This document shows positions 1 to 5,190 of a stretch of DNA of 5,190 nucleotides, piece after piece. The translations under genes were made by a program, and so were the position numbers. Below the pieces are notes generated by a model. The model worked only from the letters and a program-made list of their open reading frames with translations. It was not told the origin of the DNA and did no database searches. Each line of letters begins with the position of its first letter. Position 1 is the stretch's first letter. Where the stretch lies: the NCBI RefSeq assembly GCF_003334815.1, contig NZ_QOWO01000074.1; one strand, written 5' to 3'. The DNA comes from Escherichia coli (GTDB taxonomy: Bacteria; Pseudomonadota; Gammaproteobacteria; Enterobacterales; Enterobacteriaceae).

Positions 1-1196
1 TCAGGGGCGGTTCCTCGCCCCGCAAACCACACTTTCCCTTTTCCCGACTGGTTCAGTTCATCGAGTGTTTTCATTAACTTTTCACTGTTTTTACGGGGCT
101 GGATTTCATCAAATAATCCCGGCTGCGCTATACCCGATGGTGTGAAATCAGCCAGCATGACTCCTGCCTTCATATAGCGGTACCCTTCACGCCAGACATG
201 GTTTAAGGCTCTGCATGCGGCGGCAATAATGTCCCGGCTGTCCTGTGTGGGCAATGGAAGCTTTTCCACAGCGGCATTGCTGTAACAGGGTTCTTTTACT
301 GCAAAGGGGGATGTCCGTACAAATGTCGTCACCTGCCGGCAATACTGACGCTCCCCACGTAGTTTCTCTGCGGCCCGCTCTGCATACTGAACAACAGCCT
401 GGTGCATGGCATCTTTGTCTGTGATTCGTTCACCAAAACTGCGACTACAGACAATCTGCTGTTTTGCCGGTGGTGCTTCTTCCAGGGATATGCAGGACTC
501 GCCGTTGAGTTCGCGTACCGTACGCTCAAGAATGACGCTGAAGTTTTTCCGGATGAATGCCGTGTTAGCCTGCGCCAGCTGCAGTGCTGTGTTAATACCC
601 AGCGCATTCAGCTTTTCCGTCAGTCTGCGTCCTACTCCCCAGACCTCACCAACTGGCTGCAGCCCCAGTAGCTTCAAGGTCCGATTACGGTTTTCTGCCG
701 TCAGCGCGACCACTCCGGAAAACTGTGGCCATTGCTTTGTTGCCCACTGTGCACTTTTAGCCAGCGTTTTTGTAGGCGCAATGCCCACCCCCATGGTGAG
801 TCCTGTCCAGCTCTTTACCTGTTCCCTGAGCTGATGACCAAAAACCTCCGGAGAGATGCAATGATTTATCCCCCGCAAATCAATGAACATTTCATCAATT
901 GAGTAGGGCTCAACTGCGGGAGAAAGCGACTCCAGAACAGCCATGACCCGTTGGCTCATGCTGTGGTACAGCGCATAATTGCTGGAAAATACATGTATTT
1001 TCTTCTCCAGGCGCATCTGTCTCACCTGAAACCAGGGCTGCCCCATTCTGATGCCAAGGGCTTTTGCCTCCGGGCTGCGCGCGATCACACAGCCATCGTT
1101 ATTGCTGAGTACGATGACCGGTTCGTTGCGAAGGTCCGGGCGGAAAACTTTTTCACATGAGGCGTAGAAACTGTTGATATCAGCCAGTGCAAACAT
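1..1196 (-). CDS. impB: Y-family translesion DNA polymerase subunit, UmuC/MucB/ImpB family (partial; C-terminus beyond the window start)
   Basis: Minus-strand frame is open from ATG at 1196..1194 to the window edge (398 codons, no stop; not in the ORF track because it runs off the edge). By-eye translation begins MFALADINSFYASCEKVFRPDLRNEPVIVLSNNDGCVIARSPEAKALG, matching the conserved UmuC N-terminus, and ends within the window as ...VWFAGRGTAP. Start codon overlaps the upstream gene's stop (ATGA). About 20-25 C-terminal residues are expected beyond position 1 by family length. Confidence 0.9.
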   Translation of the reverse strand, partial: MFALADINSFYASCEKVFRPDLRNEPVIVLSNNDGCVIARSPEAKALGIRMGQPWFQVRQMRLEKKIHVFSSNYALYHSMSQRVMAVLESLSPAVEPYSIDEMFIDLRGINHCISPEVFGHQLREQVKSWTGLTMGVGIAPTKTLAKSAQWATKQWPQFSGVVALTAENRNRTLKLLGLQPVGEVWGVGRRLTEKLNALGINTALQLAQANTAFIRKNFSVILERTVRELNGESCISLEEAPPAKQQIVCSRSFGERITDKDAMHQAVVQYAERAAEKLRGERQYCRQVTTFVRTSPFAVKEPCYSNAAVEKLPLPTQDSRDIIAAACRALNHVWREGYRYMKAGVMLADFTPSGIAQPGLFDEIQPRKNSEKLMKTLDELNQSGKGKVWFAGRGTAP

Positions 1197-1633
1197 CAGC
1201 GTAACTCCCGCGTCCTGTGTATCACGTGAGTGACAACACCAAAAATACAGATGTTTTCCGGATACAGTGTGCGGAATTCCGGGCTGTCTGAAACCGGCTC
1301 CAGTGCCGGGCGTGGGCGCAACAGCAGTCGTTTGACGGTGAACTCACCGTCGATCTCAGCGATAACGATGTCCCCGTGTTGTGGTTTCTCGGCCCTGTCC
1401 ACTACCAGCAGATCACCATTCTGCACGCCAGCTTGGTTCATCGATTCACCGCTGGCGCGCAGAAAGAAGGTGGCTGCAGGTCTGCTGATGCAATAGCTGT
1501 TCAGATCCAGTTCCTGCTCAGCATAATCAGTGGCAGGCGAAGGAAAACCGGCCTGGCAACGATCGGCAAACAACGGTCGCACGTAACTGTCATCGCCTGA
1601 AGGGTCAGCCGGACGGTGATAAACGGTACTCAT
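1196..1633 (-). CDS. impA: UmuD/MucA/ImpA-like SOS mutagenesis protein (LexA-like S24 self-cleaving peptidase), 145 aa
   Basis: ORF-track protein MSTVYHRPADPSGDDSYVRPLFADRCQAGFPSPATDYAEQ... contains the UmuD-family hallmarks: an Ala-Gly cleavage region (CQAGFPSPA), the catalytic Ser motif (ASGESM) and Lys motif (FTVKRL). Length is typical. Stop overlaps the downstream polymerase start; start overlaps the upstream impC stop. Confidence 0.9.
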   Translation of the reverse strand: MSTVYHRPADPSGDDSYVRPLFADRCQAGFPSPATDYAEQELDLNSYCISRPAATFFLRASGESMNQAGVQNGDLLVVDRAEKPQHGDIVIAEIDGEFTVKRLLLRPRPALEPVSDSPEFRTLYPENICIFGVVTHVIHRTRELR

Positions 1634-1878
1634 GCTGCAGGCAGCCAGCTGTCGTCCTGCCAGATTTCTTCCAGCAGAGACAGGATACGTTCTTTATCCT
1701 TGTCGTTGCGGGCTCCTGTGACAGATACAGACGGGGCGCTGCCCTGGTCTATACGCAGCCAGATTTCCGGGTAGTGTGGTTTCAGACGTTGTTCGATTTC
1801 ATTCTGTAGCGCCTGAAGTGTGCCTGATTTGAGGTTTTTTGTGCTCTGGCGGTCGAAAAGAATTTCAATGCGGATCAT
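1630..1878 (-). CDS. impC: DinI-like small SOS regulator (ImpC-like), 82 aa from the internal ATG
   Basis: From ATG at 1878..1876 the product MIRIEILFDRQS...VSVTGARNDKDKERILSLLEEIWQDDSWLPAA aligns to the DinI family (RIE start, VSV core, acidic/Trp C-terminal). A Shine-Dalgarno GGGAGA lies about 7 nt upstream. The ORF track extends to an ATG at 1938 (102 aa), but that would place the LexA box inside the coding region, so I prefer the 1878 start. The three-gene order small DinI-like / UmuD-like / UmuC-like is the basis for the imp symbols. Confidence 0.75.
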   Translation of the reverse strand: MIRIEILFDRQSTKNLKSGTLQALQNEIEQRLKPHYPEIWLRIDQGSAPSVSVTGARNDKDKERILSLLEEIWQDDSWLPAA

Positions 1879-1899
1879 GTTCTCATCTCCCTTTTCTAT

Positions 1900-1919
1900 T
1901 GCTGTATGCATATACAGTA
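1900..1919 (-). promoter_or_regulatory. LexA operator (SOS box) for the impCAB-like operon
   Basis: tgCTGTatgcatatACAGta: perfect CTGT-N8-ACAG palindrome (CTGT 1902..1905, ACAG 1914..1917) with AT-rich spacer and TA flanks, 22 bp upstream of the impC start and abutting the candidate -10. Confidence 0.8.
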
Positions 1920-1948
1920 TTCTAATAACTGAATCCACACACAGTCAA
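1919..1948 (-). promoter_or_regulatory. Candidate sigma70 promoter for impCAB (-35 TTGACT, -10 TAGAAT, 18-nt spacer)
   Basis: Minus-strand TTGACT at 1948..1943 and TAGAAT at 1924..1919. The -10 abuts the LexA box, the usual layout for SOS-repressed promoters. Hexamers read by eye; start site unknown. Confidence 0.4.
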
Positions 1949-1992
1949 ATGTCATTATTGTGACTAAAAAACGCTCAATTCTCTGGGAGTGT

Positions 1993-2022
1993 GGCTGTAT
2001 GCCTGCTGTGGACTGCTGTGTC
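1993..2022. repeat. Short tandem direct repeat, 10-bp period (CTGCTGTG core, two clear copies plus one degenerate)
   Basis: ctgctgtg at 2003..2010 and 2013..2020 exactly 10 bp apart, preceded by the related ctgtatgc at 1995..2002. Lies in the divergent intergenic region upstream of the impC -35. Confidence 0.3.
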
Positions 2023-2081
2023 CAGCTTATCCACAGCATTTTGCGCACGGTTCTGTGAATAAAATACCTGGTTACCCAGGC

Positions 2082-2093
2082 CGTGCCGGCACG
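2082..2093. promoter_or_regulatory. Perfect 12-bp palindrome CGTGCCGGCACG (candidate operator or structure)
   Basis: Self-complementary 12-mer in the GC-rich leader upstream of the intron-interrupted gene. No known factor assigned. Confidence 0.25.
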
Positions 2094-2189
2094 TTAACCG
2101 GGCTGCATCCGATGCAAGTGTGTCGCTGTCGCCGGCCTCCTCACCCGGTCACGTTTCGTCGTTCCTCCTCCACGCGCTGCGGCTTCGGG

Positions 2190-2233
2190 GCCGCACCTGC
2201 ATTCGTATGCGGTCGCCCGGTTACAGGTGCGGC
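2190..2233 (+). repeat. Inverted repeat / stem-loop, 10-bp perfect stem (GCCGCACCTG ... CAGGTGCGGC) with 24-nt loop
   Basis: 2190..2199 is the exact reverse complement of 2224..2233. A second small hairpin (ggcct/aggcc, 2236..2250) follows. Both sit in the 5' leader about 40-80 nt upstream of the ATG at 2272; no T-run follows, so not a typical intrinsic terminator. Confidence 0.35.
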
Positions 2234-2271
2234 ACGGCCTGATGGAGGCCGCATGTGAGAGGAGAATTCCC

Positions 2272-2292
2272 ATGCCAAACTGGTGCTCGAAT
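2272..2292 (+). CDS. Host gene exon 1 (7 codons, MPNWCSN) of an intron-interrupted hypothetical protein
   Basis: Strong Shine-Dalgarno GAGAGGAG (2257..2264) 7 nt before ATG at 2272. The 7 codons end exactly at the inferred intron 5' junction and join in frame to the long open frame beginning at 4699. Depends on the inferred intron boundaries. Confidence 0.4.
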
Positions 2293-2900
2293 GTGCGACA
2301 TGAAGTCGTCTGAATAATTGTTCCAGCGGAGTTCGATTCCGTCAGGGAACCTGATGTTCCGTCATCAGTAGCCTACTGACACATGCGTCACTGGTAACGG
2401 TGGGGTGTGAAGCTGTCAGGACAATGAAACCGGATCTTCGGATCGCATGAAACCGTGAGGTTACATGTAATCTGCCAGCATCAGGCGGAGGAGGTCTAGG
2501 CTCGGTAGCATGACTAACATATGTGAACTGCTGAAGCGTCGTTAACCAGAACAAGCCAAAGATGCTGACAGGCTTGAACCAAAAGGTATGTGGTTGGTTA
2601 CTCCTCTGTTTGCTAGGGGTACACGGACAATAAACCACCGGTGTTGTGAGCAGAGTCTAACCTACTGTTGTTATTCAGGTGGAACATGGTAAGCCCGTAT
2701 CGCTGCCTCGTGAGGCAGGTTAACCGCAAGGGATACTGTTGGCGGTGCGGGTAAAAGAAGGTGGAAAAAGCGAATGCCAGTCTGTAATGGACCGGATAAG
2801 GGTTGAGCCCGGCAACATTACCCTACGCGAAAGCGGGCAGACTTCCACTGGGTCTTTCATTACGAGAGAGTTTGAGTAATCTTCCAGAAAGGAAAAGCAG

Positions 2901-4625
2901 ATGACTGAGCAGGCTACAACCTGTAAAGGTGCGTCCTTACTTAACGGTGACTCCTGGCACAGTATCAACTGGCGTCAGTGCTATCGGGAAGTGCGGAGAC
3001 TGCAAGCGCGTATCGTAAAGGCAACACGAGAAGGTAAACATGGCAAGGTCAAATCCTTGCAATGGATACTGACTCACTCGTTTAGTGGCAGAGCAGTTGC
3101 TGTCAGACGAGTTACAGAGAATAGCGGGAAACGTACTCCTGGGGTTGATGGTCAGACATGGTCTTCCCCGGAGGTTAAATTTCTTGCTATTAACCTGCTG
3201 AAACGGCGTGGTTACAAACCACAGCCACTTAAGCGGGTTTATATACCTAAGTCAAATGGGAAGTCTCGTCCCCTTGGGATACCCACTATGAAGGATCGGG
3301 CGATGCAGGCGTTGTATTTGCTGGCTCTTGAGCCCGTTGCTGAAGTCACTGCTGACCAGAGATCCTTCGGCTTTCGGACTGGAAGGTCTACTGCAGATGC
3401 GATAGCACAGTGCTTCTGTGTTCTTGCGCAGAAAACATCCGCTGAATGGGTGCTTGAGGGGGATATACGGGGATGCTTTGACAATATATCTCATCAATGG
3501 CTAATCGATAACACCTCAACAGACAGACAAATCCTGACAAAGTGGCTTAAAGCGGGTTACAGGGAAAATGGGCAGTTATTCCCTGTAAATTCAGGAACTC
3601 CTCAGGGGGGAATAATTTCTCCTGTACTGGCTAACATTGCTCTGGATGGACTGGAGGCGCTTCTTGCGTCGGAGTTTAAAAAGAGAACAGTCAAGGGACG
3701 ATTGGTTAACCCGAAAGTTAACTATGTGAGATATGCTGATGATTTTATTATCACTGGAGAGTCAAAAGAACTTCTTGAGTCTCAGGTATTACCCGTCGTC
3801 AGGCGGTTTATGGCTGAAAGAGGATTAATGCTTTCTCCTGAAAAGACGAAAATCACACATATCGAGGAAGGATTTGATTTTCTTGGACAGAACATTCGCA
3901 AATATGGCGGTAAGATGCTGATCAAACCCTCTAAAGCCAATGTCAGTTCCTTTTTAAAGAAAATACGCGCTGTAATCAAAGGCAACAAAGCTATGGATCA
4001 GCTTACGTTGATCCGCATGCTGAACCCAATGATCAAAGGGTGGGCGGCTTACCATCAACACATTGTGGCCAAGGTCGCATTTAACAAAGTTGACAATGAG
4101 ATCTGGCTGGCTTTATGGCGTTGGGCCGTTCGGCGTCATCCCAATAAGGGAAAGAAGTGGATTCGGAAAAGATATTTCCATCAACAAGGTGCCCGAAACT
4201 GGTCTTTCTCCGTGGCTACCGGAGAACTCCTTGCCAACGGTAAGCCTCAGTATGCAAATCTGAGGAAAGCAATCGATACGCCTATCAACCGGTTTAAACC
4301 GATTAAAATCGCAGCTAATCCGTTCGATCCTCAATGGGAGATGTACTTTGAGGAGCGTTGTGCAGACAAAATGCGGCACAAACTGCAAGGACGGAAAAAG
4401 CTCATTCAAATCTGGTTTGAGCAGCGGGGCCGATGCCCCATATGTGATGAGAGGATTACATCTGATTCCCAGTGGCAGGTTCATCACATCATACGGCGAG
4501 TCGATGGAGGGAGCGACTGCCTCTCCAATTTGATTATGCTGCATCCGATGTGTCACACACTTGTTCATGCGAAAGGTATACATGTAGTGAAACCGGCTCA
4601 TGAGAGTGGGCTTAGAAAGGCTTGA
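2901..4625 (+). CDS. Group II intron-encoded protein: reverse transcriptase / maturase / HNH endonuclease, 574 aa
   Basis: ORF-track protein has RT motifs (RVYIPKSNGKSRPLGIPTMKDR, GCFDNISH, SGTPQGGIISPVLANIAL, VRYADDFII), a maturase X region (MIKGWAAYHQH) and a C-terminal HNH/Cys module (CPICDERI...HHIIRRVDGG...CHTLVH). SD AAGGA 7 nt upstream. Stop overlaps the first bases of domain V. Confidence 0.95.
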   Translation: MTEQATTCKGASLLNGDSWHSINWRQCYREVRRLQARIVKATREGKHGKVKSLQWILTHSFSGRAVAVRRVTENSGKRTPGVDGQTWSSPEVKFLAINLLKRRGYKPQPLKRVYIPKSNGKSRPLGIPTMKDRAMQALYLLALEPVAEVTADQRSFGFRTGRSTADAIAQCFCVLAQKTSAEWVLEGDIRGCFDNISHQWLIDNTSTDRQILTKWLKAGYRENGQLFPVNSGTPQGGIISPVLANIALDGLEALLASEFKKRTVKGRLVNPKVNYVRYADDFIITGESKELLESQVLPVVRRFMAERGLMLSPEKTKITHIEEGFDFLGQNIRKYGGKMLIKPSKANVSSFLKKIRAVIKGNKAMDQLTLIRMLNPMIKGWAAYHQHIVAKVAFNKVDNEIWLALWRWAVRRHPNKGKKWIRKRYFHQQGARNWSFSVATGELLANGKPQYANLRKAIDTPINRFKPIKIAANPFDPQWEMYFEERCADKMRHKLQGRKKLIQIWFEQRGRCPICDERITSDSQWQVHHIIRRVDGGSDCLSNLIMLHPMCHTLVHAKGIHVVKPAHESGLRKA

Positions 4626-4698
4626 GCCGTATGCCGGGAAACTGGCACGTACGGTTCTTAGGGGGCGGTGATGCAGTAATGCATCACTGCTACCCGAT
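4624..4698 (+). ncRNA. Group II intron catalytic domain V and domain VI (branch-point helix) up to the 3' splice site
   Basis: DV: GAGCCGUAUGCCGG-GAAA-CUGGCACGUACGGUUC (4624..4657). DVI: 15-bp helix 4661..4675 / 4680..4695 with GUAA loop and a single unpaired A at 4692, six nt before the ...GAU 3' end. Confidence 0.8.
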
Positions 4699-5190
4699 CG
4701 TATGTATTTTTCTGGTGAACCAGCACAGATCGCTGAGATTAAACGACTGGCCAGCGGTGCAGTCACACCGCTTTATCGCCGCGCCACAAATGAAGGTATT
4801 CAGCTGTTTCTGGCCGGAAGTGCCGGACTTCTGCAGATCACTGAAAATATCCGCTCTGAGCAGTGCCCCGGAGTGACGGCTGCCGGACGTGGTGCTGTAT
4901 CACCGGAAAATATCGCGTTCACCCGCTGGCTGACACACCTGCAGAACGGTGTACTGCTGGATGAGCAAAACTGCCTGATGCTGCATGAACTCTGGCTGCA
5001 GAGCGGTACTGGACAGCGTCGCTGGGAAGAGTTACCGGATGATGTCAGGGAAACTATCACTGTGCATTTCACCGCAAAAAGAGGTGACTGGTGTGACATC
5101 TGGGGTAACGAGGATGTATCGGTGTGGTGGAACCGTCTGTGTGACAACGTACTGCCGGAAAAAACCATGCCGTTTGACCTGCTGACGGTT
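4699..5190 (+). CDS. Host gene exon 2: hypothetical protein of unknown function (partial; continues beyond the window end)
   Basis: Frame beginning at 4699 (CGT ATG TAT ...) is open for 164 codons to the window edge: R-MYFSGEPAQIAEIKRLASGAVTPLYRRATNEGIQLFLAGSAGLL...WWNRLCDNVLPEKTMPFDLLTV. Not in the ORF track because it has no stop in the window. Composition is protein-like. I recognise no family from memory. Confidence 0.55.

Follow-up and report, generated by a model that had tools for sequence, protein, structure and literature searches.

An SOS mutagenesis operon of the impCAB type in a plasmid-like stretch of Escherichia coli DNA

Genes and products of the three-gene operon

We analyzed a stretch of 5,190 nt from Escherichia coli (contig NZ_QOWO01000074.1), hereafter the window, in which positions 1..1948 carry on the minus strand a three-gene operon that very likely represents impCAB of an IncI-complex plasmid. 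In the open reading frame (ORF) listing of this region, three minus-strand ORFs without internal stops follow one another, co-oriented and tightly packed as one unit, and their order is DinI-like, UmuD-like and UmuC-like, as a previous sequence-only reading had described it. The first gene, impC (1878..1630, minus strand), starts with ATG and encodes a DinI-like protein of 82 aa, whereas the second, impA (1633..1196, minus strand), encodes a UmuD-like self-cleaving subunit of 145 aa. The third, impB, encodes the catalytic subunit of a UmuC-like Y-family DNA polymerase; its complete codons run from 1196 to 3 on the minus strand, comprising the first 398 of 424 codons, and the gene continues past the window edge at position 1. 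A GGGAG ribosome-binding site is located at 1891..1887, 8 nt 5' of the impC ATG. A longer impC of 102 aa with a GTG start at 1938 was considered and rejected, since this start lies upstream of the -10 element and both the annotations and the ribosome-binding site favour the ATG at 1878. The stop-start overlaps of 2 nt (1630..1633) and 1 nt (1196..1198) that had been reported could be read directly from the sequence. At the impC/impA junction, ATGA at 1633..1630, the impC TGA (1632..1630) and the impA ATG (1633..1631) have 2 nt in common, and at the impA/impB junction, TGATG at 1198..1194, the impA TGA (1198..1196) and the impB ATG (1196..1194) have 1 nt in common. While impB has its own GGGAG site, impA lacks a ribosome-binding site of its own, so that its translation is probably coupled to that of impC through the ATGA. 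A consensus scan of the minus strand found no promoter- or terminator-like sites inside the three-gene unit.

Because the polymerase gene in relatives is 1,275 nt long (424 aa), ending 2 bases from a convergent partition/stability gene, the window lacks only the last 26 codons and the stop codon of impB, which fall beyond position 1. The earlier reading had allowed for a frameshift in the polymerase gene, but the ORF is open through all 398 codons within the window. These 398 aa are 100% identical to the first 398 of the intact 424-aa ImpB in the IncI plasmid pRHB07-C14_3 (L001), and from such identical relatives we infer an intact C-terminus for impB. We also considered that the operon might be a decayed, non-functional remnant, as on many IncF plasmids with only the impB 3' end. 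The impB 3' end is indeed not within the window, the matches of many E. coli plasmids are confined to window 1..447, the C-terminal part of impB, and impB is replaced or interrupted in some relatives, of which S. dysenteriae p92-9000 is an example. However, none of the three ORFs is interrupted, no damage is seen in the catalytic residues, ribosome-binding site, promoter or operator, and the annotation of the closest full-length relatives includes an intact polymerase of 424 aa. In addition, the low ratio of nonsynonymous to synonymous substitution rates (dN/dS) of impCAB across 460 I-complex plasmids points to purifying selection (PMC10286972). Decay is thus very unlikely for this copy.

At the protein level, ImpC matches the Pfam family DinI (PF06183, E=1e-17) and the DinI structure 1ghh in the PDB (E=7e-6), and it is 33% identical to K-12 DinI. 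Because its score in the NCBIfam DinI equivalog model is below the cut-off (41 bits vs 111), ImpC is DinI-like by sequence, a member of the wider PF06183 family rather than a DinI equivalog. ImpA exceeds the cut-off of the NCBIfam UmuD model NF007621 (143 bits vs 110) and aligns to E. coli UmuD (PDB 8gmt_B) with E=3e-36. In this alignment, Ala28-Gly29 of ImpA corresponds to the Cys24-Gly25 cleavage site of UmuD, Ser64 to Ser60, and Lys101 to Lys97. ImpB scores 747 bits against a cut-off of 431 in the NCBIfam UmuC subfamily NF002955, covering profile positions 1-397 of 422, and its catalytic carboxylates D6, D101 and E102 are conserved. The exact sequences of ImpA and ImpC are named 'Protein ImpA' (IMPA_ECOLX) and 'Protein ImpC' (IMPC_ECOLX) in UniRef, and the full-length polymerase of pRHB07-C14_3, whose first 398 aa are those of the window, bears the UniRef name ImpB (W0FJ15_ECOLX). 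The comparison of the three products therefore returned the names ImpC, ImpA and ImpB, with identities of 33-58% to the chromosomal counterparts.

At the DNA level, 1,990 bases were 100% identical to dozens of plasmids, and those inspected were typed as IncI-gamma/K1, MOBP and MPF_I; the window as a whole is 99.8-100% identical to plasmids of this type. The 1,990-base query matched 3,796 plasmid records, 2,227 of which cover at least 80% of it. At least 80% of the operon is present in 1,438 of 5,426 complete E. coli genomes, and the matching places in the complete genomes lie on plasmids in 3,577 of 3,620 cases, the other 43 being chromosomal. No replicon gene was found in the window. In relatives, imp is flanked by plasmid partition genes and by genes of the leading region. 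As a separate observation, many E. coli plasmids, mostly of 100-190 kb, keep only the 447 nt of the impB 3' end at ~97% identity; these partial copies are annotated 'DUF4113' or 'DinB/UmuC family' and look like a widespread remnant of the imp operon.

These data bear on whether the locus could be a chromosomal umuDC with dinI adjoining by chance. In favour of this, ImpA and ImpB exceed the NCBIfam cut-offs for the UmuD and UmuC subfamilies, and public annotation calls the genes 'umuD' and sometimes 'umuC'. However, K-12 umuD is preceded by the divergent hlyE and has no dinI-like gene upstream, dinI being ~110 kb away, and the identities to UmuD, UmuC and DinI are only 49%, 58% and 33%, respectively. 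Together with the complete DNA identity to IncI plasmids, the few chromosomal places and the partition and leading-region neighbours, these identities refute a chromosomal umuDC, which we regard as practically excluded; a rare chromosomal integration would still be an imp operon. The earlier choice of an imp-type operon over umuDC, including its remark that the element is known, is thus borne out by the exact protein names and the identity to IncI plasmids, and chromosomal umuDC and dinI are not the top matches.

A further possibility is that the genes belong to another umuDC-like family of plasmids or integrative and conjugative elements, such as mucAB, samAB, rumAB or rulAB. Like imp, these families have the UmuD/UmuC fold, are under LexA control and are carried by mobile elements. 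To our knowledge, however, they are two-gene operons without a DinI-like first gene, and the window proteins match sequences named ImpA, ImpC and ImpB exactly. Membership in one of these families is accordingly hardly credible.

Promoter, LexA operators and proposed mechanism

The imp promoter (1919..1948, minus strand) consists of a -35 hexamer TTGACT at 1948..1943, an 18-nt spacer and a -10 hexamer TAGAAT at 1924..1919. It is sigma-70-like with 10 of 12 matches, and it is the only minus-strand promoter-like site found by the consensus scan in 1..2400. A predicted LexA operator (SOS box), TACTGTATATGCATACAGCA, occupies minus-strand positions 1919..1900. It adjoins the -10 hexamer, with which it has base 1919 in common, and the expected transcription start falls within it. 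In the window, TACTGTATATGCATACAGCA is the sole site with no more than three mismatches to the 20-mer TACTG(TA)5CAGTA, and such sites appeared in 0 of 200 shuffles. We also scored LexA sites with a weight matrix constructed from 16 E. coli LexA operators known from the literature, two of which were verified against the K-12 sequence. While TACTGTATATGCATACAGCA scored 24.6 bits, exceeded by the umuDC operator alone (27.0 bits), the recA operator scored 23.3 bits, and the best score in 500 window shuffles was 22.3 bits, so that none of them reached the score of TACTGTATATGCATACAGCA. The LexA binding prediction thus places the main operator above that of recA.

Another LexA-like sequence, the weak site AACTGAATCCACACACAGTC at 1927..1946, coincides in part with the -35 hexamer and the spacer. 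It departs from CTGT-N8-ACAG at a single position, and its score of 10.8 bits falls short of the 95th percentile of shuffles and is within chance when the site is taken alone. We list it because an identical sequence has been reported for impCAB of the near-identical IncI1 plasmid pTF2, with a heterology index of 13.49 and at -48 (PMC12211044). The main impCAB box of pTF2 has a heterology index of 1.60 and lies 21 nt from the ATG (PMC12211044), and the two boxes of the window lie at the same distances from the ATG, 21 and 48 nt. Hence, of the single SOS box abutting the -10 that the sequence-only reading had proposed, the strong near-consensus box at 1919..1900 stands, while the word single does not account for this weak companion over the -35. 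Among close relatives, the main operator varies only in its central spacer, which is ATATGCAT in the window, ATATACAT in pTF2, differing from it by one base, and ATAAACAT in S. dysenteriae p92-9000. Apart from the promoter region, a LexA-like 20-mer inside impB, TGCTGTGTTAATACCCAGCG at 585..604, reached 16.6 bits, which exceeds the 95th percentile of shuffles and is close to the score of the dinB operator; since it encodes a conserved ALGINTA motif, it is probably a by-product of coding constraint.

Based on this layout, we propose the following mechanism as the best-supported account. In the absence of damage, a LexA dimer would sit on the operator at 1919..1900 and block RNA polymerase, since this position is next to the -10 and includes the start site; the weaker site over the -35 may contribute to the repression. 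Upon DNA damage, RecA filaments on single-stranded DNA would stimulate LexA self-cleavage and the promoter would fire. The three cistrons would then be translated from one mRNA. ImpA would cleave itself at Ala28-Gly29 through its Ser64/Lys101 dyad on the RecA filament, and a dimer of the processed ImpA' would combine with ImpB into a Pol V-type translesion polymerase, which would copy past lesions but introduce mutations in doing so. ImpC, if it acts like DinI, may bind RecA filaments and temper or time the processing of ImpA. The first two steps, LexA repression and damage induction, draw on the sequence and on published proteomics, where in a constitutive-SOS lexA strain with pTF2 ImpC was up 21-fold, ImpA 9-fold and ImpB 2-fold (PMC12211044). 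Translational coupling, ImpA cleavage, polymerase assembly and the role of ImpC are modelled on conserved residues and on what is known of UmuD, UmuC and DinI, with the part played by ImpC being the most uncertain of all. Forced overexpression of impCAB leads to a severe growth defect (PMC10286972), and this defect fits tight repression, as does the low dN/dS.

Taken all together, we give a probability of roughly 95% that window 1..1948 is the impCAB operon of an IncI-complex conjugative plasmid, controlled as one LexA-repressed transcription unit. Several points weigh against it or qualify it. Deletion of impC, impA, impB or the whole operon changed neither conjugation nor SOS levels (PMC12211044). 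The window ends before the final 26 codons of impB and before any terminator, so that an intact C-terminus would follow from the relatives; the main operator is one central base off the box studied in pTF2; for this copy, LexA binding, induction, ImpA cleavage and mutagenesis are predictions; and the function of ImpC is putative, modelled on DinI. Nothing in the sequence contradicts the impCAB assignment. An I-complex-type conjugative plasmid would bring its own SOS-inducible error-prone polymerase, which is worth bearing in mind where stress-induced mutagenesis is considered in hosts that carry resistance plasmids. This is textbook-level knowledge for I-complex plasmids, the operon being present in more than a quarter of complete E. 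coli genomes. impCAB is already known, and this copy, which belongs to the family by every testable feature, is ordinary; its value lies in annotation and it advances no open question.

Group II intron, hairpin and the leading-region setting

On the plus strand, the window further contains a complete group II intron of 2,406 nt (GTGCG...CCGAT) at 2293..4698, with a reverse transcriptase ORF at 2901..4625. Rfam models place intron domains D1-D4 at 2350..2496 and domain V/VI at 4622..4698. The empty site in an intron-free IncI plasmid reads ...GGTGCTCGAAT|CGTATG, and the insertion lies 3 nt upstream of the ATG (4702) of a DUF1281-domain gene, whose 5' part occupies 4702..5190 on the plus strand and which is 903 nt long in relatives. 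There, this gene is the first of a block running away from imp, followed by genes for a hypothetical protein, a DNA methylase, a DUF1380 protein and an antirestriction protein. IncF plasmids of 92.7 kb, the size of pO157, have a 99.6% identical intron inserted at this very site. The pO157 intron is EcI5, for which C-18, C-17, A-15 and A-14 are the critical target bases (PMC8643678), and all four are present in the 5' exon of the window. The window intron is therefore probably EcI5 (subgroup IIB1, with a CL1-lineage reverse transcriptase), inserted where it naturally homes. Coverage of at least 80% of the whole window, meaning both imp and the intron, was seen in only 47 plasmid records.

In the intergenic region 1949..2292, between the imp promoter and the intron, we found a long imperfect hairpin at ~2076..2242. 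When 1950..2292 was folded as single-stranded DNA, the energy was about -75 kcal/mol, with z-scores of -4.9 and -4.7 for the two strands. The hairpin sequence occurs about once per plasmid in 4,820 plasmid records, in IncI as well as IncF plasmids, including IncF plasmids without imp. No clear -35 and -10 boxes were identified in the hairpin. A 'class 3' single-stranded-DNA promoter has been described upstream of the M.EcoGIX methylase operon of the IncI1 plasmid pESBL (PMC12672017). By its position, the hairpin is probably this promoter. The idea that 1950..2292 is one of several Frpo-type copies per plasmid was rejected, since BLAST found a single copy in each of two plasmids (L001 and L002); this check asked whether repeated hairpins explain a second intron in L001. 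The latter plasmid, pRHB07-C14_3, contains a second, different group II intron reverse transcriptase gene (~633 aa) at 17079..17190, further along the leading region, and the flanks of that intron have no similarity to the EcI5 site. If the hairpin is a single-stranded-DNA promoter, then within 2076..4704 EcI5 would belong to the 5' untranslated leader of an operon whose expression rises strongly when the plasmid enters by conjugation. New recipients would in that case produce a burst of intron RNA and reverse transcriptase, which may couple intron mobility to conjugation.

This setting raises the question of whether the main role of imp is plasmid establishment after conjugative entry, with general protection against ultraviolet (UV) light being secondary. 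For example, incoming single-stranded DNA might induce SOS and, in new transconjugants, a burst of the plasmid polymerase together with RecA modulation by ImpC. The position of imp at the inner edge of the leading region in both IncI and Klebsiella IncFII-type plasmids, despite Imp identities of ~50-70%, speaks for such a role, as does its back-to-back arrangement with the probable single-stranded-DNA promoter in the window. Against it, the published deletions had no effect on conjugation frequency (PMC12211044), and imp is on the strand that is untranscribable until the complementary strand is made. We therefore consider an establishment role doubtful.

Comparison with known systems

The closest known systems are the IncI impCAB operons of TP110, pTF2, pMS7163B and pESBL, which have the same gene order, sizes, overlaps and geometry of promoter and LexA box as the window. 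Unlike most imp-bearing plasmids, the window has the EcI5 intron in the neighbouring leading-region operon. The impCAB operon of the IncI1 plasmid TP110 was reportedly described by Lodwick, Owen and Strike in 1990. The S. flexneri virulence plasmid carries the same named operon, a link that rests on the literature: its impCAB reportedly improves survival after UV and raises induced mutagenesis (Runyen-Janecky, Hong and Payne, 1999). In one 224-kb S. flexneri plasmid, imp was absent at the position beside the DUF1281 gene.

Klebsiella plasmids of the IncFII(K)-type/MOBF group (pNJST258C1 and p5512.56-3-VIM1) have the same DinI-like/UmuD/UmuC order, with the homologous operons at 2501..4478 in both loci (L003 and L004). 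Compared with the window, the Klebsiella homologues are 47-49% (ImpC), 63-64% (ImpA) and 69-71% (ImpB) identical, and an 11-nt gap precedes the polymerase gene in place of the overlap. The Klebsiella operon lies between partition genes and the methylase/DUF1380 leading-region block, the same position as that of IncI imp. While the upstream DNA cannot be aligned with that of the window, both copies have a LexA box close to consensus immediately ahead of the first gene, AACTGTACATCCATACAGTA with 21.6 bits and TACTGTATATCCATACAGTA with 26.1 bits. Such conservation speaks for a functional arrangement.

The chromosomal umuDC and dinI genes resemble the window operon in their biochemical logic, with an operator for LexA, a UmuD-type subunit that cleaves itself, a catalytic subunit of the Y family and a RecA modulator of the DinI type, and the E. 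coli umuD/umuC junction also shares a single base, as impA/impB does. In contrast with the three genes of the window, the E. coli chromosome has a two-gene umuDC, with dinI as a separate SOS gene elsewhere, and the cleavage site is Cys-Gly in UmuD whereas it is Ala-Gly in ImpA.

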